DNA from: a virus
Lineage: Duplodnaviria; Heunggongvirae; Uroviricota; Caudoviricetes
Strand: one strand, 5' to 3'
DNA length: 6,653 nucleotides
IMG/VR virus record: IMGVR_UViG_2541047174_000021
This document shows positions 1-6,653 of the stretch, in pieces. Numbering within the stretch: position 1 is the first letter of the stretch; each line of letters begins with the position of its first letter. The notes under the pieces are model-generated. The model was not told where the DNA came from. It ran no database searches and saw only the letters and a list, made by a program, of their open reading frames with translations. The position numbers and the translations under genes were made by a program.

Positions 1-13
1 CGTTGGTTAGCTA

Positions 14-232
14 TTAACGTGGGTATGTAATCATTCTGGCAATGCTTAATGCCGCTGCTTTTTCCAGATTGGTGATATCCTGCTCCAGAGCGGACAGATT
101 TTCAGCCTGCTTAGCCCTGGCTTCATTGGCCCATTTCAGATCCTGCGCTGCCTTAATTTTCTGGTGCATCCACTCATAAAGTTCATCATCGGTATAGTCT
201 GGCGCGATGATGACGGGGTCTCGTTTCTGCAT
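14..232 (-). CDS. Small prophage early-left-operon protein, 72 aa, probably coiled-coil (YdfC-like by size and position)
   Basis: ATG at 232 is preceded on the minus strand by AAGGAG about 6 nt upstream (plus 238-243, ctcctt). Same strand as and downstream of the dicA-like gene, as ydfA-ydfB-ydfC follow dicA in K-12 Qin; K-12 YdfC is also 72 aa (recalled, not aligned). Charged, heptad-like sequence. Confidence 0.6.
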   Translation of the reverse strand: MQKRDPVIIAPDYTDDELYEWMHQKIKAAQDLKWANEARAKQAENLSALEQDITNLEKAAALSIARMITYPR

Positions 233-304
233 GTCGGCTCCTTGTGGTTAGCGTTGCCTGCTTTTTAACCACGTCAGGCGAGGTGGTATCCTCTGAGGGG
301 TCTG

Positions 305-604
305 TTACTCGAGAGGAAATTGGTTATGAATACAATCAAGTTTTCTTGCCCAGAATGTGGTGGCTAAGTCTTTGACACATCCTTTAAGCCGCAGGGCTCT
401 GACAGTTTCGCGGGAGCCATCTGCAAAAATTGTGGTCACCTTGTAACTGAAGATGAGTCCTCGCAGTTCGATGACGAAATCGTTGACAATATCTTCGGTG
501 CACTCACCAGAGACTTTCTGAAGTAAAGGCGCATACCGCTTAGTTACCGCTCTGATAACTCTTACCTGTCCGGCAATGGCGCTGATATCAATATAAAGCG
601 CCAT
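305..604 (-). CDS. Hypothetical protein, 99 aa, unknown function, in leftward early operon
   Basis: ORF-track frame. It stays open upstream to a stop at 743-745, but no in-frame ATG/GTG/TTG lies upstream of the ATG at 604. Weak Shine-Dalgarno. Co-oriented between the repressor and the 72-aa gene. No family recognised. Confidence 0.4.
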   Translation of the reverse strand: MALYIDISAIAGQVRVIRAVTKRYAPLLQKVSGECTEDIVNDFVIELRGLIFSYKVTTIFADGSRETVRALRLKGCVKDLATTFWARKLDCIHNQFPLE

Positions 605-739
605 CGCTGTTTCTTTGCTGATCCCTGGACGCCTTCCATTCTGATGTTTGACTCGCCCACTGAGAAATCCTCTGCTTCCCCTTAACGCCGGGTAGCGGAA
701 CTGTTTGCTGAGAACACCGTGCGGTGTCTTGATGAGTAG

Positions 740-800
740 AATTTAGAATAGCCTAAGAGTTATGGTCAAGCTTTTTGTGTAGAAAAACCTAAGCTTCTTG
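740..800 (-). promoter_or_regulatory. Putative promoter with operator-like CTTAGG motifs for the leftward early operon
   Basis: On the minus strand: TTGACC (plus 764-769), an 18-nt spacer, then TAAATT (plus 740-745). Two CTTAGG motifs (plus 752-757 and 788-793) match the motif repeated in the dicA/dicC intergenic region. The minus-strand 13-mer CTTAGGTTTTTCT nearly equals CTTAGGTTTCTCT at 1301-1313. Confidence 0.25.
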
Positions 801-804
801 ATGT

Positions 805-838
805 AAAAAACACAAGTATTTGAAAGTTTGTGCTTTTT
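805..838 (-). terminator. Weak candidate intrinsic terminator downstream of the dicA-like gene
   Basis: Inverted repeat CACAA (811-815) / TTGTG (828-832) with a 12-nt loop. The plus-strand A-run at 805-810 gives a U-tract for the minus-strand transcript. Short stem, so low confidence. Confidence 0.25.
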
Positions 839-867
839 ATTACAGAGAGTTGCGAAAAAAAGGGGGG

Positions 868-1275
868 TTATTTATTTGCGCTTCTTTTGCGAGCTTTGAG
901 TAGTTCTTCAAAAAGTTTGTTGAAATTCTCAACTCGAGCACGCATCTCTGACAACAGAGCCTTTTGCTCTGACTCAGGCAGTGCGTCGAACAGTTGAAGC
1001 AACTCTTTTTGATCTTCTGTCAGATTGACTGGCTGATTATCTGGGATCGGTTCGCCTGGTTGCTTATCTTCATCTCCAAAAAGAAGCCAAGTCGGCGAGC
1101 ACTGAAGCGCCTGGCTCAGTGCGAATAATCTCTTCCCCGCTGGCTGTGTTTCATCTCTTTCCCATTGAGAAATTGTTACGTGAGCCACTTTGACCAGCTT
1201 ACCTAATGCGGCCTGAGACAGTTTTAATTTTTTTCGCCTGTATAAGAGGCGAGCACCGAAGGTTTCGTTTTTCAT
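868..1275 (-). CDS. dicA: DicA-like XRE-family HTH repressor (cI/c2 analogue), 135 aa
   Basis: 135 aa, the same length as E. coli DicA. Helix-turn-helix region (LSQAALGKLVKVAHVTISQWE) plus blocks I recall from DicA (LQCSPTWLLFGDEDKQP; EMRARVENFNKLFEELLKARKR). Divergent from a DicC-like gene. Confidence 0.85.
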   Translation of the reverse strand: MKNETFGARLLYRRKKLKLSQAALGKLVKVAHVTISQWERDETQPAGKRLFALSQALQCSPTWLLFGDEDKQPGEPIPDNQPVNLTEDQKELLQLFDALPESEQKALLSEMRARVENFNKLFEELLKARKRSANK

Positions 1276-1351
1276 ATTAGGTAATTCTAATTTTTCTTGA
1301 CTTAGGTTTCTCTACGATCTAGTTTCCTTAGGAAAATCTAAGGGTTTCGAT
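1276..1351. promoter_or_regulatory. Divergent promoter/operator region between dicA-like and dicC-like genes
   Basis: TTAGG motifs at 1277-1281, 1302-1306, 1327-1331 and inverted CTAAGG at 1338-1343. Inverted repeats ATTAG-N6-CTAAT (1276-1291) and CCTTAG-N6-CTAAGG (1326-1343). For dicC: -35 TTGACT (1297-1302), -10-like TAGTTT (1320-1325), SD AGGG about 7 nt before ATG 1352. For dicA: minus-strand TAGAAT (plus 1283-1288) only 8 nt before the ATG and no SD, suggesting a leaderless mRNA like lambda cI from PRM. Confidence 0.5.
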
Positions 1352-1579
1352 ATGTTGAAAATTGATGCTATAGCGTTTTTTGGCAGCAAAACAAAGCTTG
1401 CCAATGTCGCAGGAGTTAGGCTGGCAAGCGTTGCTGCATGGGGGGAACTGGTTCCTGAAGGTCGCGCGATGCGCCTGCAAGAGGCATCCGGCGGGGAACT
1501 TCAGTACGACCCCAAAGTTTATGACGAATATCGTAAGGCAAAGCGGGCGGGGCGGTTGAACAATGAAAATCACCACTGA
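1352..1579 (+). CDS. dicC: DicC-like Cro-type regulator, 75 aa
   Basis: Size, divergent arrangement with the repressor, and recalled similarity to E. coli DicC (GSKTKLA, VPEGRAMRLQEASGGELQYDPKVYDEYRK). Confidence 0.85.
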   Translation: MLKIDAIAFFGSKTKLANVAGVRLASVAAWGELVPEGRAMRLQEASGGELQYDPKVYDEYRKAKRAGRLNNENHH

Positions 1580-2114
1580 ACAGGTTTGTGAGGCTCTGGA
1601 TACCTGGGTATGCCGACCAGGAATGACACAGGAGCAGGCGACGATATTAATCACGGAAGCATTCTGGGCTCTGAAAGAACGCCCGAACATCGATGTTCAA
1701 CGCGTCACGTTTAATGATGGCGAGGTTGATCAACGGGCGCTGGGCGTTAACCGGGTGAAGATATTCGAACGCTGGAAAGCTATCGACACCAGAGATAAGC
1801 GTGACAAATTCACGGCGCTGATTCCGGCAATTATGGAGGCTATCCGGATCAGCGATTTCAGATTGTATTGTGAAATTACTGACGGAAAAAGCATTACGTA
1901 CATGATCGCCGGGTTAAACAAAGAATATGGCGATGTGGTGGAGTCCGGGCTGCTTTTTGCGGATCCAGTTGTTGTGGAACGTGAGACTGACGAGCTTATA
2001 GAAAAAGCTATTGCTTTCAAGCACGCGTATCGTCAGCAATACCAATATTACTTTGCAGATAAACAAATGTCTGCCAGGGGGGCGTATGAGTATCGATGCA
2101 CTACGATGGGCTAA
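1563..2114 (+). CDS. Prophage early protein at the cII position, 183 aa (possibly YdaT-family regulator)
   Basis: Immediately follows the Cro-like gene; its ATG overlaps the dicC 3' end by 17 nt and its 3' end overlaps the next gene's start. The YdaT-family assignment is a weak recollection (IPAI-containing segment), not verified. Confidence 0.55.
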   Translation: MKITTEQVCEALDTWVCRPGMTQEQATILITEAFWALKERPNIDVQRVTFNDGEVDQRALGVNRVKIFERWKAIDTRDKRDKFTALIPAIMEAIRISDFRLYCEITDGKSITYMIAGLNKEYGDVVESGLLFADPVVVERETDELIEKAIAFKHAYRQQYQYYFADKQMSARGAYEYRCTTMG

Positions 2115-3126
2115 AAAGGTGAAAACCGGCAGTTCATCCAGTAAGTCAGTATTGACCTGGCTTGCTGATATGTGCGGTGCCGATTTGTGTGCATACCCGT
2201 CTGTATCTGCACTGGCAGAAGTAACGGAACTGAACAAAAAGACTGTGCAGGACAGCTTACGACACCTGATGGAGATTGGGTTAATTGTTGATACCGGTGA
2301 GAGAAAAGGCAGAACAAAGCAAATTGTGGTGTACCGACTTATCGGTGTAGAAGAAAGTGTTGCCGAGCCTGAATACACCCAAAAACGGGAGTCTTTAAAG
2401 GTGGGTAAAATTGGTGCTGTTAATAAAAACAGTACCGAAAATGGTTATGTTTCAGCACAAAACAGACCCAAAAACAGAACTCTTAGCTGCATGGAAAATA
2501 ACCAAAGACACCCAAATTTTCCATCAAAGACACCCAAAAACGGATCACGGAACCCAAAGGAACCCAAAGATCTAAACCCCACACATAACGCACGCGAGAG
2601 TGCTCCGACCAGTGAGCAGGAAGTTTTGTCGTTACAGGCAGCCCCCCCTGTATTCCTGTATGGCCTGAGCGAACCCATCGGAAAATTCCCGATGAGCGAT
2701 AGCTGGTATCCGTCACGGGATTTTCGACGACGGGCTGCGTTGTGGGGGATGGCTTTGCCGGAGACAGAATTTACACCTGCTGAACTTGCCGCCTTCCGGG
2801 ACTACTGGGCAGCGGAGGGGAAAGTGTTTACGCAGATTCAGTGGGAGCAGAAATTCGCCCGTCACGTAAATCACGTCAGGGCGCAGGTTAAACCAGTCAG
2901 CAAAGGGGTAAACCATGCAGCAGCACCAGGTGGCACCGCATCACGGGCAGTTCAGGAAATTCGGGCAGCACGTGAGCAGTGGGAACGTGAAAACGGATTT
3001 ATCAGCGACGGAAACGGCCTGGAAGCTGTGGGAACTCATGGGGGTGGTTTATTCGAACCGCTGGATCCAGAAGAACGGGGCCGCACCTTCGAAGCTCTGG
3101 ATTGCACAGATTGGCGCGATGACTGA
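2086..3126 (+). CDS. Phage replication initiator / replisome organiser (lambda O-like role): N-terminal HTH, iteron-encoded linker, C-terminal DnaT-like domain
   Basis: The track ORF 2011-3126 starts at a TTG; I prefer ATG 2086 (MSIDALRWAKK), which has a G-rich SD (2074-2081). C-terminal segment GKFPMSDSWYPSRDFRRRAALWGMALPETEFTPAELAAFRDYWAAEGKVFTQIQWEQKFARH resembles the E. coli DnaT C-terminal domain (recalled). Low-complexity Pro/Lys/Asn linker is encoded by the repeat array. Confidence 0.8.
   Translation: MSIDALRWAKKVKTGSSSSKSVLTWLADMCGADLCAYPSVSALAEVTELNKKTVQDSLRHLMEIGLIVDTGERKGRTKQIVVYRLIGVEESVAEPEYTQKRESLKVGKIGAVNKNSTENGYVSAQNRPKNRTLSCMENNQRHPNFPSKTPKNGSRNPKEPKDLNPTHNARESAPTSEQEVLSLQAAPPVFLYGLSEPIGKFPMSDSWYPSRDFRRRAALWGMALPETEFTPAELAAFRDYWAAEGKVFTQIQWEQKFARHVNHVRAQVKPVSKGVNHAAAPGGTASRAVQEIRAAREQWERENGFISDGNGLEAVGTHGGGLFEPLDPEERGRTFEALDCTDWRDD
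2375..2570. repeat. Iteron-like direct repeats (candidate phage origin of replication) inside the initiator gene
   Basis: Exact 14-mer CAAAGACACCCAAA at 2503-2516 and 2525-2538 (22-bp spacing). Related copies ACACCCAAAAACGG 2375-2388, AGACCCAAAAACAG 2464-2477, AACCCAAAGG 2551-2560, AACCCAAAGA 2561-2570. An AT-rich stretch lies within the array at about 2401-2462. Confidence 0.45.
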
Positions 3127-3580
3127 GCAGCAAATCCGGCAGGTCTGCCGCCAGTGCATGGACCGCTGCCGGGCGGGTGAAACATGGCCTCCGGACCTGG
3201 CTGAGTTTGTGGCACTGATTTCGAAAAGCGGAGCCAATCCATTCGGTCTGACGGTGGATGCTGTGATGGAGGAGTACCGCCGCTGGCGCAATGAGTCCTG
3301 GCGATACGACGGAAGTGATAAGTACCCGTGGTCTCAGCCTGTGCTGTATCACATTTGCCTCGAGATGCGTTCAAAGGGGATTGAGCGCCAGATGACCGAA
3401 GGGGAATTAAAACGGCTTGCAGAACGGCAACTGACGAAATGGGCAAAGCATGTTAGTAACGGCCTGAGCGTTCCGCCAGTCCGGCGACAACTGGCGGCCC
3501 CCAAACGCCCGTCGGGGCCAACGCCAATTGAGTTGCTGAAACAGGAATATGAACGCCGGAAAGCGGCTGGTTTTGTTTGA
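2915..3580 (+). CDS. Lambda P-like replication protein (helicase loader), 221 aa from ATG 2915
   Basis: C-terminal half resembles lambda P (recalled), e.g. YPWSQPVLYHICLEMRSKG...LTEGELKRLAERQLTKWAKHV versus lambda YPWKSNAHYWLVTNLYQNMR...LTDAELRRKAADELVHMTARI. Best SD (AGGGG 2901-2905) precedes ATG 2915; alternative starts are ATG 3038 and ATG 3119. Start uncertain. Confidence 0.75.
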   Translation: MQQHQVAPHHGQFRKFGQHVSSGNVKTDLSATETAWKLWELMGVVYSNRWIQKNGAAPSKLWIAQIGAMTEQQIRQVCRQCMDRCRAGETWPPDLAEFVALISKSGANPFGLTVDAVMEEYRRWRNESWRYDGSDKYPWSQPVLYHICLEMRSKGIERQMTEGELKRLAERQLTKWAKHVSNGLSVPPVRRQLAAPKRPSGPTPIELLKQEYERRKAAGFV

Positions 3581-3613
3581 GTTGAGAAGTGATTTTTTAC
3601 CGGGAGGAAATTT

Positions 3614-4348
3614 ATGGAGACTGTTTTTGACGCACTGAAAGCGATGGGAAAAGCCACGTCGGTATAGCTGGCTGCGCGACTTGATATCAGTCGTGAAGAA
3701 GTACTGAACGAGCTGTGGGAACTGAAAAAGGCTGGCTTCGTTGATAAAAGCGTATACACCTGGCGTGTGGCTGATAACAACGTTCAGCAGGAACAGCCAG
3801 CGCCAGAAGAAACCACCACGGCAACAGAAGCGAAAATCTCAGAGTGCGATTTAACCGCGACGATTGAACAACGCGGACCACAAACGGCGGATGAACTGGC
3901 TACGCTGTTCGGTACAACATCCCGCAAAGTTGCTTCAACGCTGGCAATGGCAATCAGCAAAGGTCGTCTGATTCGCGTAAACCAGAACGGTAAAATTCGT
4001 TACTGCATACCAGGTGATAATTTACCAGCAGAGCCGAAAGTTGAATCGGTAGCGGAAACCGATGGTAAAGCCTTTCCTCAGCCAGCCGGTGTTGCGTTAC
4101 CGGTACAGAAAGATGCAACACAGGAAGATATTAAAACAGAAACTGTGGCGGACATTGTGCAGTCGCTGCCATCGTTTACTGCAACGCGAGAAGATGATTT
4201 GATTTTGCCATCGCTGCATATGGCAAATCGCGAACTGCGTAGGGCGAAGAATCATGTCCAGAAGTGGGAGCGAGTCTGCGCCGCGCTGCGGGAGCTGAAC
4301 AAGCACCGGGATATGGTTGCCGGGATTTGTCGGAAGTCCGGGCAATGA
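3614..4348 (+). pseudogene. Tandem winged-helix (HTH) phage protein, 244 codons, interrupted by an in-frame amber codon at 3665-3667 (Ren position after P)
   Basis: Strong SD GGAGG (3603-3607) before ATG 3614. Frame reads [48 protein letters not shown] and runs without further stops to TGA 4346-4348. The TAG sits where HTH motifs usually have Gln/Glu. The track ORF 3767-4348 is the same frame restarting at a GTG. A second HTH-like segment is [33 protein letters not shown]. Confidence 0.6.
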
Positions 4349-4509
4349 GCGGATGGTGCAGGCCTGAAATCATGATACTAACAATGAAGGTAAAATGCAT
4401 CGGCAGTCTGATTGGTCGTAGTGAGGCGGCGGTCAGGATGAAAGCCCAGGTTAAGGGAATAAGCCTGATTCTGCGGGGTGATTTTCACCAGTCAACAAAA
4501 TATCCGTAG
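4345..4509 (+). CDS. Short ORF (54 aa) translationally coupled to the preceding gene; possibly the disrupted 5' part of the following remnant
   Basis: Its ATG (4345-4347) overlaps the upstream TGA (4346-4348) in an ATGA arrangement. No recognisable family; product [24 protein letters not shown]... Confidence 0.25.
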
Positions 4510-4956
4510 CGCGATAACGGTCAAAAATTATGGCGCTGACACTTTTGTGCCACTGGAGATGACTGTACCTAAGTTCAGGGGAGAAGAACACGTCCGGTGG
4601 GATGGTCGGGCCAGATTTAAAGGGCAGGTCATGGCTCCAGCCTGTACGCTGGCAATGGAGGCTGCCTGGCGGGAAATTGATATGGGAACCACGCCACTCA
4701 GGGATTTACTGCCGGTCCAGAGAATAAATTCCTGTTACGGTTACACCACTGTGATCTTGCAAGTGCAGGAAAGTAGGTCTACACGGTAACGCGAGTGCGT
4801 GTAACTTTTGATGTCATTCCCGTAGAAACACCGGACAAATTTTCGCTGACAGGTCATGCAGAAGGTATAAATCTGCAGATTATGGACAATTACGGATATC
4901 CGGCAAGAGCCGGAAAAAGCATGCCGCCTCTAATTCTCAGTGGAAGATGGACTTGA
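4478..4956 (+). pseudogene. Fimbrial (chaperone-usher pilin) subunit-like remnant, frameshifted and 3'-truncated
   Basis: Frame 2 (4478-4789) has GRARFKGQVMAPACTLAMEAAWREIDMGTTPLRDL, matching the pilin N-terminal pattern F-x-G-x-V-x3-C...L-G-x-V (compare FimA GTVHFKGEVVNAACAV...VQLGQV, recalled), with a second Cys about 30 residues on. Frame 1 (4777-4956) continues with VTFDVIPVETPDKFSLTGHAEGINLQIMDNYG, like FimA GVQILDRTG. No in-frame signal peptide, at least one frameshift near 4775-4790, and it ends at the AT-rich boundary. Confidence 0.35.
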
Positions 4957-5015
4957 TTATACTCATTGCATTGTCAGAAATAGTTATCCATTAAAGGCTG
5001 GCTATTCCAAACAGG

Positions 5016-5043
5016 ATGTTGATTACAAAAATGTAATCAACAT
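5016..5043. promoter_or_regulatory. Perfect inverted repeat (12-bp arms, 4-bp spacer) upstream of the binding-protein gene; candidate operator
   Basis: ATGTTGATTACA (5016-5027), AAAA, TGTAATCAACAT (5032-5043), arms exactly reverse-complementary. Sits in the AT-rich region about 165 bp before ATG 5208. A perfect TATAAT is at 5070-5075. Confidence 0.3.
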
Positions 5044-5207
5044 GTAAGGTTTATACTCTTCAATATGCGTATAATTTTCCTTATTTTGTTGACTTTAAAT
5101 AACAAGCTATGCACGAGGTAAAGTCGGATAAGTTTATCTGGATGTAATATATATTATTTGTAGTGTTTATAACTTTATTTCATGATAACCAATAAAAGGA
5201 GTTTTTT

Positions 5208-5966
5208 ATGAGGAACATAATGGCAGGTTTTTTAATATTCCTGTCTTCTGCTGCTTATGCTGATATCAATCTGTATGGTCCTGGTGGCCCGCATACAGCC
5301 TTGCTTGATGCAGCCAAACTTTATGCCGAAAAAACAGGTATTATAGTGAACGTTCATTACGGCCCACAGAACAAATGGAATGAAGATGCCAAAAAAAATG
5401 CAGATATCTTGTTTGGCGCATCAGAACAATCTGCTCTGGCTATCATTCGGGACCATAAAGACAGCTTCAGTGAAAAAGATATTCAGCCTCTTTATCTGCG
5501 AAAAAGTATTTTACTGGTAAAGAAAGGTAATCCTAAAAATATCCGGAGTATTGACGACCTGACCAGACCTGGGATTGGCGTAATTGTTAATGATGGTGGT
5601 GGTACCAGTAATACATCAGGCACTGGCGTCTGGGAAGATATTGCCGGACGTAAAGGGAATATAGAAACTGTCGCCGCAATCCGAAAAAATATTATTTTAT
5701 ATGCGCCCAATAGCGGAACTGCACGTAAGGCTCTTGAGAATCAGCCTGGAGCAGATGTCTGGATAACCTGGGCTGACTGGGCAGCCAGTAATCCAGAAAT
5801 TGGTGATGTCGTGGAAATAGCGCCAGACTACGTGATATGGCGTGATATGAACATTACAGTACGTCAGGATGCAAATGATGAAACCCGTCGATTTGCAGAA
5901 TGGCTACAAACCGATGAAGCGGCGCCTGCATTCAAAAAATATGGCTGGACCAGGAAAGGCACTTGA
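5208..5966 (+). CDS. Secreted periplasmic substrate-binding protein, ModA-like (molybdate/tungstate-type fold), 252 aa, orphan
   Basis: SD AAGGAG (5195-5200) 7 nt before the ATG. Signal peptide MRNIMAGFLIFLSSAAYA, then DINLYG. Architecture parallels E. coli ModA (recalled): ADILFGASEQ versus ADLFISADQ, C-terminus AAPAFKKYGWT versus AAEIFKRYGFT. AT-rich codon usage unlike the phage module. No permease or ATPase gene nearby. Confidence 0.75.
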   Translation: MRNIMAGFLIFLSSAAYADINLYGPGGPHTALLDAAKLYAEKTGIIVNVHYGPQNKWNEDAKKNADILFGASEQSALAIIRDHKDSFSEKDIQPLYLRKSILLVKKGNPKNIRSIDDLTRPGIGVIVNDGGGTSNTSGTGVWEDIAGRKGNIETVAAIRKNIILYAPNSGTARKALENQPGADVWITWADWAASNPEIGDVVEIAPDYVIWRDMNITVRQDANDETRRFAEWLQTDEAAPAFKKYGWTRKGT

Positions 5967-5970
5967 CATC

Positions 5971-5998
5971 CTCGTCCTTCAGGACGTGGATTCTTTTT
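5971..5998 (+). terminator. Candidate intrinsic terminator after the binding-protein gene
   Basis: Imperfect hairpin CTCGTCC-TTCA-GGACGTG (5971-5988) followed by a T-rich tract, TTCTTTTT (5991-5998). Confidence 0.3.
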
Positions 5999-6085
5999 CC
6001 GGATGCCGCGCCAGCGGCATGTAGGGGCAGCTCACAAAACGGAAAAAATTGTACGCTAAGCCTCGCCAGGTGAACTGAATTCATT

Positions 6086-6109
6086 CCGATATGGGAATTC
6101 CCATATCGG
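6086..6109. repeat. Perfect 24-bp palindrome centred on GAATTC, upstream of the hok promoter region
   Basis: CCGATATGGGAATTCCCATATCGG equals its own reverse complement. A second GAATTC lies at 6077-6082. Confidence 0.6.
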
Positions 6110-6179
6110 GCGAAAACGGTTTGCTGTAACGGCAGAGTTAAGTAGGATTGCTGCGGGTGCTTGAGGCTATCTGCCTCGG

Positions 6180-6255
6180 GCATGAACACCAACGGCAGAT
6201 AGATAAAAGCCCCACCCGACTATAAATCGAAGTGAGGCCCCTATATGCTCGTCAC
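6180..6255 (-). ncRNA. sok: Putative Sok-like antisense RNA (approximate bounds)
   Basis: By analogy with hok/sok loci, the antisense RNA covers the mok SD/start (SD GAGG 6233-6236, ATG 6245). A minus-strand TTGACC -35 candidate is at plus 6283-6288; I found no convincing -10. Ends not determinable from sequence. Confidence 0.3.
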
Positions 6256-6457
6256 ATATAGATTGCCTCTTACGGACCGAAAGGTCAAGGAGAAGCAGGC
6301 TATGAAGCAGCAAAAGGCGATGTTAATCGCCCTGATCGTCATCTGTTTAATCGTCATAGTGACGGCACTGGTAACGAGGAAAGACCTCTGCGAGGTACGA
6401 ATCCGAACCGGCCAGACGGAGGTCGCTGTCTTCACAGCTTACGAACCTGAGGAGTAA
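6245..6457 (+). CDS. mok: mok-like reading frame (in-frame upstream extension overlapping hok), 70 aa
   Basis: ATG 6245 with SD GAGG (6233-6236). Reads MLVTYRLPLTDRKVKEKQA then the Hok sequence, the same layout I recall for chromosomal MokC/MokB. The region from about 6153 closely parallels the plasmid R1 hok mRNA leader (recalled). Confidence 0.5.
   Translation: MLVTYRLPLTDRKVKEKQAMKQQKAMLIALIVICLIVIVTALVTRKDLCEVRIRTGQTEVAVFTAYEPEE
6302..6457 (+). CDS. hokD: Hok-family type I toxin (HokD/RelF-like), 51 aa membrane peptide
   Basis: MKQQKAMLIALIVICLIVIVTALVTRKDLCEVRIRTGQTEVAVFTAYEPEE: Hok family signature, near-identical to my recollection of E. coli K-12 HokD (RelF). SD AAGGAG (6287-6292). 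Confidence 0.9.
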   Translation: MKQQKAMLIALIVICLIVIVTALVTRKDLCEVRIRTGQTEVAVFTAYEPEE

Positions 6458-6525
6458 GAGACCAGGCGGGGGAGAAATCCCTCGCCACCTCTGATGTGTC
6501 AGGCATCCTCAACGCACCCGCACTT

Positions 6526-6552
6526 AACCCGCTTCGGCGGGTTTTGTTTTTT
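6526..6552 (+). terminator. Rho-independent terminator of the hok transcript
   Basis: Stem AACCCGC (6526-6532), UUCG tetraloop (6533-6536), GCGGGTT (6537-6543), then TTGTTTTTT. Confidence 0.7.
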
Positions 6553-6653
6553 CTGGTCGTTCTGGTTTACAATCCATCCGTCAGCCTGAACAACTGGCAC
6601 CTGCTGCGCCAGCAGAGAAAACAGATGGCGCACGATACCAAATTTTACAATTC

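Follow-up and report, generated by a model that had tools for sequence, protein, structure and literature searches.

Does the hok gene of a Qin-like Escherichia coli prophage, whose toxin is nearly that of K-12 HokD, stand behind relBE and devoid of its own control elements as in K-12, or does it belong to a complete hok/mok/sok module? The question is raised by a window of 6,653 nucleotides from a Caudoviricetes record (IMG/VR IMGVR_UViG_2541047174_000021). An initial annotation, made from the letters alone, described at 6120-6552 of this window a complete hok/mok/sok-type locus not fused to relBE, suggested that it could be an ancestral form of hokD, and proposed as checks the folding of the RNA and a comparison with the K-12 relBE-hokD junction. 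The answer we reach is that a Qin-like lambdoid prophage carries here, with high probability, an intact type I toxin-antitoxin locus of the hok/mok/sok kind, which belongs to the hokD/hokW/hokC clade, and that its mechanism would be of the plasmid R1 type. The sequence elements, the homology to annotated loci, the predicted folds and the covariation on which this identification is built were observed directly for the locus.

The hok and mok reading frames

The toxin gene occupies 6302-6457 on the plus strand and encodes 51 residues of the Hok/Gef family (Pfam PF01848, HOK_GEF: 77.2 bits for a cutoff of 22). The protein is identical to RefSeq WP_032287685.1, annotated HokD, and the near-identity to K-12 HokD that had been stated at first is borne out by 50 common residues out of 51 (98%), the difference being T17I. 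The identity amounts to 90% with HokW, 80% with HokC and only 37% with the Hok of R1. The hok Shine-Dalgarno (SD) sequence, AAGGAG, is read at 6287-6292 on the same strand.

In the list of open reading frames, mok starts at ATG 6245, 57 nt upstream of the hok start, and runs in frame through hok to the common stop codon (6245-6457, plus strand; 70 aa); GAGG at 6234-6237 (plus strand), 7 nt 5' of this ATG, provides its SD, so that the in-frame mok start with SD of the earlier description stands. The same layout is found in the annotated mokW/hokW of phage 933W and mokC/hokC of K-12. In R1, unlike the window, mok is out of frame with hok because the two starts lie 58 nt apart (PMC9841398).

Genomic setting and distribution

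In the Qin-like lambdoid prophage of E. coli, the window represents the early region. The upstream neighbour of hok is paa (5208-5966; an SBP_bac_11 protein, the AcfC-family adhesin Paa of near-identical genomes). In these genomes, a dicA/dicC-type repressor pair is followed by a YdaT-family gene, replication genes, a DUF1627 gene, a decayed fimbrial gene, paa, hokD, a rem-like gene, DUF968/ydfU, rusA and the genes of the Q region. relBE is not annotated in the near-identical prophage regions (L001 and L004), and the arrangement is not the relBEF one of K-12. The locus is indeed not fused to relBE, and paa lies in the upstream position.

From 6060 to 6551, the sole difference between the window and STEC strain 08-3914 is a 1-nt indel in the terminator T-run, and the loci annotated 'gef, phage maintenance protein' in PPompW prophages are 99.5% identical to the window locus. 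A query covering 6060-6600 finds some match in 4734 of 5426 complete E. coli genomes, and at least 80% of it, leader included, is held by 2354 of them; 535 records match it at 99% or better. The relE-hokD junction of K-12 occurs in fewer genomes (1166 of the 5426). Contrary to the suggestion of an ancestral form, the locus is neither a rarity nor an ancestral survivor but the common and already annotated prophage form.

Predicted promoter and terminator of the hok mRNA

A consensus promoter scan of 5900-6653 returned no sigma-70 site on either strand, and the promoters were therefore assigned through homology and through a -10 hexamer found at a fixed offset. All 27 tac-bearing homologues, unrelated in their upstream sequences, have a TANNNT hexamer with its end exactly 4 nt upstream of GCGGG; this putative -10 is TAGGAT in the window (6143-6148, plus strand), TAGAAT in 933W and TATAAT in K-12 hokC. 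The putative -35-like hexamer TTTGCT (6120-6125, plus strand), proposed from the 17-nt spacer to the -10, matches TTGACA at only 3 of 6 positions and lies under the scan threshold, the overall match of the promoter to the consensus being weak (7/12). These hexamers point to an own hok promoter, from which the mRNA is predicted to start at G6153-G6155. A hok promoter of low strength is also the usual design of plasmid R1 (PMC3827094). At the 3' end, the terminator scan gave an intrinsic terminator of the hok mRNA (6526-6552, plus strand), in which AACCCGC-TTCG-GCGGGTT (6526-6543) forms a 7-bp stem with a UUCG loop and is followed by the U-run, in agreement with the UUCG terminator of the first description.

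Pairing between the two ends of the mRNA

The 5' end of the predicted hok mRNA carries the translational activator element tac (GCGGGTGCTTGAGG, 6153-6166, plus strand) and its 3' UTR the fold-back inhibitory element fbi (CCTCAACGCACCCGC, 6507-6521, plus strand). Both had been noticed as complementary segments, the 3' one at its exact position and the 5' one a base off, at 6154-6167. They are predicted to form 14 bp around one bulged C (C6513), which is one U-A pair more than the R1 helix. Between the 5' element and the 3' UTR the duplex energy is -27.3 kcal/mol; mononucleotide shuffling of the 3' UTR, repeated 2000 times, never gave this value (mean -16.6, sd 2.3), so that the pairing is far stronger than chance. 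The proposed folding of the RNA gives, for 6153-6550, a minimum free energy (MFE) structure of -170.6 kcal/mol (z = -8.4), which contains tac/fbi together with the helix between the upstream complementary box, ucb, and the mok SD.

The comparative test made use of 34 homologous loci, one genome per species, collected with a single Hok protein as query, and of additional phage and plasmid loci. The alignment holds 21 distinct mRNAs from Escherichia, Kluyvera, Pseudocitrobacter, Photorhabdus, Pantoea and one further enterobacterium. Among the R1-type plasmid loci, L009, with IS150 in its leader, and L010, with an alternative leader, were unusable as intact comparators and L013 was taken. The tac sequence is nearly invariant in the homologues. 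In the 21 mRNAs tac/fbi is 86% paired and shows compensatory changes at 3 pairs, U-A being replaced by C-G in 5 sequences and G-C by A-U in 3; this column-wise count understates the pairing in Photorhabdus and Pantoea, where MAFFT sets fbi one column out of register because the bulged C is absent in both, and where per-sequence duplex energies give 12-14 contiguous pairs. Furthermore, cognate tac/fbi duplexes have a mean energy of -22.9 kcal/mol versus -20.8 for non-cognate ones, and 0 of 10,000 permutations do as well.

Short inverted repeats do arise by chance, and two other 12-nt inverted pairs (I3 and I4) look like products of it; one could therefore hold that the 5'/3' complementarity and the hairpins surround the hok ORF fortuitously and have no regulatory meaning. 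We give practically no credit to such a reading, which is refuted by the shuffles, by the cognate-duplex test and by the covariation: tac/fbi forms in the MFE fold and is conserved with compensatory changes in six genera.

Leader elements and the predicted fold switch

The leader matches Rfam RF01794 over 6155-6304 with 103.9 bits (gathering score 59), across model positions 1-157 of 157 and on the hok-sense strand. It is collinear with the R1 leader, 109 of 186 aligned columns being identical. The locus shares with R1 hok/mok/sok (parB) the tac, the metastable hairpin, the ucb, the mok SD and the Sok target on the 5' side, and the downstream complementary box (dcb), the hok SD, the 3' stem-loop, the fbi and the terminator on the 3' side. 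The parallel first drawn with the R1 leader thus extends to every named element and to the predicted switch described below, and the locus is complete, as had been claimed, with respect to the R1 paradigm. All the elements that follow lie on the plus strand.

In the nascent transcript, the fold of 6153-6190 (-18.8 kcal/mol, z = -3.9) is a metastable 5' hairpin (6157-6183) of 11 bp, formed by 6157-6167 and 6173-6183 with a UAUCU loop; 97.4% of its cells are paired in the 21 homologues versus 30-51% when the partners are slid, and U-A becomes C-G in 6 sequences. The apical 9-bp hairpin of the tac-stem extends over 6167-6202, with the arms CTATCTGCC (6167-6175) and GGCAGATAG (6194-6202). It is present in the predicted folds and 96.3% paired in the homologues, where three pairs are altered on both sides; the 9-nt arms are those first described, and the start, given as 6166, is to be corrected to 6167.

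Two alternative sets of partners are predicted for the following segments. In the full-length fold, ucb (6207-6215) pairs through 6209-6215 with 6232-6238, which includes the mok SD, in a helix that is 95.7% paired in the homologues with 4 covarying pairs, and dcb (GCCUC, 6265-6269) contributes to the sequestration of the hok SD. In the fold of the 3'-truncated RNA (6153-6503), ucb 6207-6213 pairs with tac 6155-6162 and dcb with the mok SD region GAGGC (6234-6238), the latter stem being located at the base of the Sok-target hairpin (6241-6261). This hairpin has a 7-bp stem, contains the mok AUG, and presents directly after the AUG the loop CUCGUCA (6248-6254), which carries a YUNR-type CUCG. 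The G+C-rich stem-loop at 6465-6486, formed in the full-length fold and 95.3% paired in the homologues, is likely to act as the stop for 3' exonucleolytic trimming, by analogy with R1 (PMC9841398). In these predictions, the folding reproduces the switch between full-length and 3'-shortened mRNA of the R1 model (PMC9841398, PMC3827094).

When projected on the 21 homologues, the full-length structure has 89.0% of its cells paired versus 40-46% with slid partners, a difference inflated by the fact that the tested structure was taken from the window sequence, which is one of those aligned. Double-sided changes occur at 29 pairs, a number reached in 0 of 500 shuffles, a count that is not a probability because the homologues are related. 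At tac position 6158, U is replaced by C together with its fbi partner and its metastable-hairpin partner, as expected of one segment with alternative partners. These compensatory changes in the helices imply selection on the RNA. The tac/ucb and SD-mok/dcb helices are 99-100% paired yet invariant, GAGGC being the same in all 21 homologues, and are therefore neither supported nor contradicted by covariation.

A sub-threshold Rfam match of the hok 3' UTR to isrK (27.2 bits versus 50) was treated as chance or architectural similarity. In the phage-collection search made as a follow-up, the matches listed beyond hok loci covered short pieces of the query's final ~40 bases, none of them annotated isrK.

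The predicted Sok antisense RNA

The annotated genes sokW of 933W and sokC of K-12 both have their start 9 nt within mok and their end at GGGGCUUUU; aligned with them, the window shows a predicted Sok gene of about 49 nt with the same limits on the minus strand (6205-6253). The annotated sokW is longer (71 nt) because 21 nt of the Sok terminator hairpin are missing from the window; sokC, annotated as 59 nt, likewise forms a short hairpin. In its fold (-18.7 kcal/mol, z = -4.0), the predicted Sok begins with a single-stranded 5' tail of 11 nt, followed by a stem-loop and UUUU, and the tail is complementary to the loop and 5' arm of the target hairpin. The putative promoter (6260-6288, minus strand), assigned by homology of layout, comprises TTGACC (-35, complement of 6283-6288), a 17-nt spacer and CAATCT (-10, complement of 6260-6265), with the start 7 nt downstream at 6253. 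It is arranged as in K-12 sokC (TTGACC-17-CACTCT, hence the common pattern TTGACC-17-CA.TCT) and in 933W sokW (TTGCCT-17-TAACCT), and its -10 matches the consensus weakly.

The Sok-target segment is the most variable one among the 8 closest homologues; in near-identical prophage hok/sok copies, no segment changes faster than the 7-nt loop recognised by Sok.

Relation to K-12 hokD and to other hok loci

K-12 hokD (relF), the third gene of relBEF in the cryptic prophage Qin, shares with the window locus its type of prophage, its downstream neighbours (rem, ydfU-type) and, from window position 6288 on, a CDS and 3' UTR (fbi and terminator) that are about 98.5% identical. Upstream it is different: relBE precedes the gene, and the hok promoter, tac, metastable hairpin, ucb, Sok gene and mok SD are not there. 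Indeed, the identity begins only at AGGAGAAGCAGGCTATG (~6288), one base into the hok SD, which accounts for the missing tac, ucb, Sok gene and mok SD. The description of K-12 hokD as lying downstream of relBE without regulatory elements of its own is therefore accurate, a spacer of 66 nt following relE, and the proposed comparison of the junctions establishes that the full leader, absent from K-12, is present in the window.

This spacer is no random piece of junction DNA. A Klebsiella plasmid that lacks relE has, upstream of an R1-like hok, a sequence about 85% identical to it, and a Kluyvera locus is nearly identical to spacer and relE together, the Hok of that locus having only 68% protein identity; the spacer also holds a uORF of 15 codons, which stops 2 nt short of the hok SD. 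Since the spacer belongs to a different leader type, K-12 hokD is, from its sequence, a mosaic in which that leader type appears joined at the conserved hok SD, and does not descend from the window form by truncation. The idea that K-12 hokD arose from the window locus by simple deletion was considered and is ruled out by the homology of the spacer to the other leader type.

A close and characterised relative is hokW/mokW/sokW of the Stx2 phage 933W and of the Sakai prophage Sp5, with 85% DNA identity over 6120-6529. All three genes of the 933W locus are annotated (GenBank AF125520). It has identical tac, apical hairpin and fbi, an in-frame mok and a lambdoid prophage host, and differs in its position in the prophage, in its 3' terminator, in the Sok tail and target loop (GACGAGCAUAU in the window versus GUUCAGCAUGG) and in its promoter hexamers (TAGGAT versus TAGAAT for hok, TTGACC/CAATCT versus TTGCCT/TAACCT for Sok). 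Experiments have established hokW-sokW as a functional type I toxin-antitoxin system (Takada et al. 2021, PMC8621323). The module is thus already known, complete copies in lambdoid prophages being publicly annotated (AF125520) and one of them having been characterised in 2021. K-12 hokC (gef)/mokC/sokC possesses the same tac and an in-frame mok of 69-70 aa; unlike the window locus, it is chromosomal and outside any prophage, and its 3' UTR with fbi is displaced by an IS186 copy whose end lies 20 nt downstream of the hokC stop. The R1 locus, in turn, is plasmid-borne and its post-segregational killing has been demonstrated.

Proposed mechanism and role

The model we propose for the transcription of both RNAs, the 3' processing, the toxicity and the biological role follows that of plasmid R1. 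The weak promoter with TAGGAT as its -10 would direct the synthesis, from a start near 6153-6155, of a ~395-nt mRNA, in which the metastable 5' hairpin would hide tac during synthesis. In the finished mRNA, tac would pair with fbi and ucb would cover the mok SD, thereby allowing neither translation nor Sok binding. The slow trimming of the 3' end would remove fbi; ucb would then become the partner of tac, and dcb that of the mok SD, at the base of the hairpin presenting the mok start. The translation of mok, coupled to that of hok, would then produce the membrane toxin, unless Sok (the complement of ~6205-6253) prevents its synthesis by the binding of its 11-nt tail to the loop and the degradation of the resulting duplex.

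Would such a module be active in its host? It may be argued that the locus, intact as it is in sequence, is a physiologically silent relic like the chromosomal hok loci of K-12, which neither kills nor stabilises because of too little hok transcription or a permanent excess of Sok. The weak match of the hok promoter to the consensus, unseen by the scan, would be consistent with this. Chromosomal hokA, hokB and hokC were reported without post-segregational killing, as cited in a preprint (bioRxiv 10.1101/2025.08.07.668861), so that an intact sequence is no guarantee of killing activity; decayed copies are also met elsewhere, with a mutated tac (L016), the IS186 end after K-12 hokC or an IS150 in the leader (L009). 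Against silence stand the integrity of every element, the same sequence in another strain apart from a 1-nt indel, the 535 records at 99% or better, the compensatory changes that imply selection on the RNA, the normality of a weak hok promoter in R1 and the activity of hokW-sokW at 85% identity. On balance we judge silence unlikely.

For this module, the role could be addiction, lysis assistance or phage exclusion, the last being illustrated by the exclusion of T4 by R1 hok/sok, as cited in PMC3827094. By analogy with HokW, the role would most likely be prophage addiction or help with lysis at induction. hokW-sokW is reported to assist the lysis of the host and the release of phage when the prophage is induced. 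That this, instead of post-segregational killing, should be the main role here as well is a possibility that we hold tentatively and at less than even chances: DNA damage would lower Sok, and Hok would help to permeabilise the membrane. The 85% identity to hokW-sokW and the common lambdoid prophage host speak for it. On the other hand, the 933W locus lies near the end of the phage record among other neighbours and that of the window between paa and the rem/ydfU/rusA/Q region; the transcriptional context is therefore not the same, and the sequence does not discriminate lysis help from addiction or abortive infection. Could the variable Sok-recognition loop give each co-resident prophage a private, non-cross-reacting pair, the K-12-type leader representing a second, Sok-independent layout of hok? 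We regard this as a speculation with a low chance of being correct.

In conclusion, the significance of the finding is small, since it concerns a textbook hok/sok module that had been correctly recognised. It nevertheless provides a map, at the level of coordinates, of all the regulatory elements of a widespread hokD-type variant for which the RefSeq annotation is limited to the CDS. It also corrects an impression drawn from K-12: hokD without a leader and linked to relBE is in the minority among complete E. coli genomes and is, as its sequence indicates, a mosaic.

Results and Discussion

Two matches to Rfam families fall within the hok locus. The first, RF01794 ('sok antitoxin', 157 positions), lies at window 6155-6304, from the tac element to the hok AUG, on the hok-sense strand and not on the strand that would encode Sok, so that neither the coordinates nor the strand of the antitoxin should be read from it. 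The second is a sub-threshold match of the hok 3' UTR (window 6466-6547) to isrK, a Salmonella Hfq-binding sRNA, with 27.2 bits (E = 0.008) where the gathering score is 50. When the phage collection was searched with this 3' UTR, the matches listed outside hok loci were short pieces from within the query's final ~40 bases. The resemblance to isrK is probably due to chance. The same end of the locus carries, on the minus strand, an ORF of 44 amino acids (window 6499-6633) running antisense across the fbi element and the hok terminator. A CDS for a 'hypothetical protein' is annotated at the corresponding position of the locus from another genome (L005 610-789, minus strand); the ORF in the window is likely spurious. 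Within the toxin gene itself, the Tyr47 codon TAC is followed by G (window 6440-6443), generating the TACG context in which A-to-I editing by TadA reportedly recodes Tyr to Cys in hokB, an editing said to extend to hokC/D/E (bioRxiv 10.1101/2025.08.07.668861).

The hok locus is directly preceded by paa (window 5208-5966), an adhesin gene of the AcfC family whose product has an SBP_bac_11 fold, and, further upstream, by a frameshifted fimbrial gene (window about 4500-5050) identified from the annotation of a near-identical genome. These two genes are virulence-type cargo of the early region of the prophage. A perfect 24-bp palindrome, CCGATATGGGAATTCCCATATCGG (window 6086-6109), separates paa from the hok promoter; among the 47 loci compared it is present only in L001 and L004, the two prophage loci that are near-identical.

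Several hok loci elsewhere are decayed: one of the three copies of strain ECMA0423 (L016, CP178302.1) has a mutated tac, GACTGCATGTGGC, K-12 hokC (L011) meets the end of an IS186 20 nt past its stop codon, and the R1-type plasmid hok of pC0044 (L009) contains an IS150 within its leader. In K-12 hokD (L012, NC_000913.3 1645275-1645345, minus strand), relE and hokD are separated by a spacer of 66 nt containing a uORF of 15 codons that ends 2 nt before the hok Shine-Dalgarno sequence. This spacer is ~85% identical to the region upstream of the R1-like hok on the Klebsiella plasmid NZ_LT994840 (L010 about 237-300), a locus without relE. Together with relE, it is also nearly identical to its counterpart in Kluyvera sp. 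CHPC 1.2972 (L030 about 200-500), whose Hok is nevertheless only 68% identical. These comparisons suggest that relBE plus leader would form a mobile module, exchanged by recombination at the conserved hok Shine-Dalgarno sequence.

Finally, in the alignment of the eight closest homologues, the most variable 8-column stretch falls on the loop (window 6248-6254) of the hairpin that Sok is predicted to target; its mean entropy is about 0.9 bit, compared with 0.11 for the hok coding sequence. The three copies carried by the single genome of strain ECMA0423 (L015, L016 and L020) all differ at this loop. Such variability would fit a selection for Sok/hok pairs that do not cross-react.
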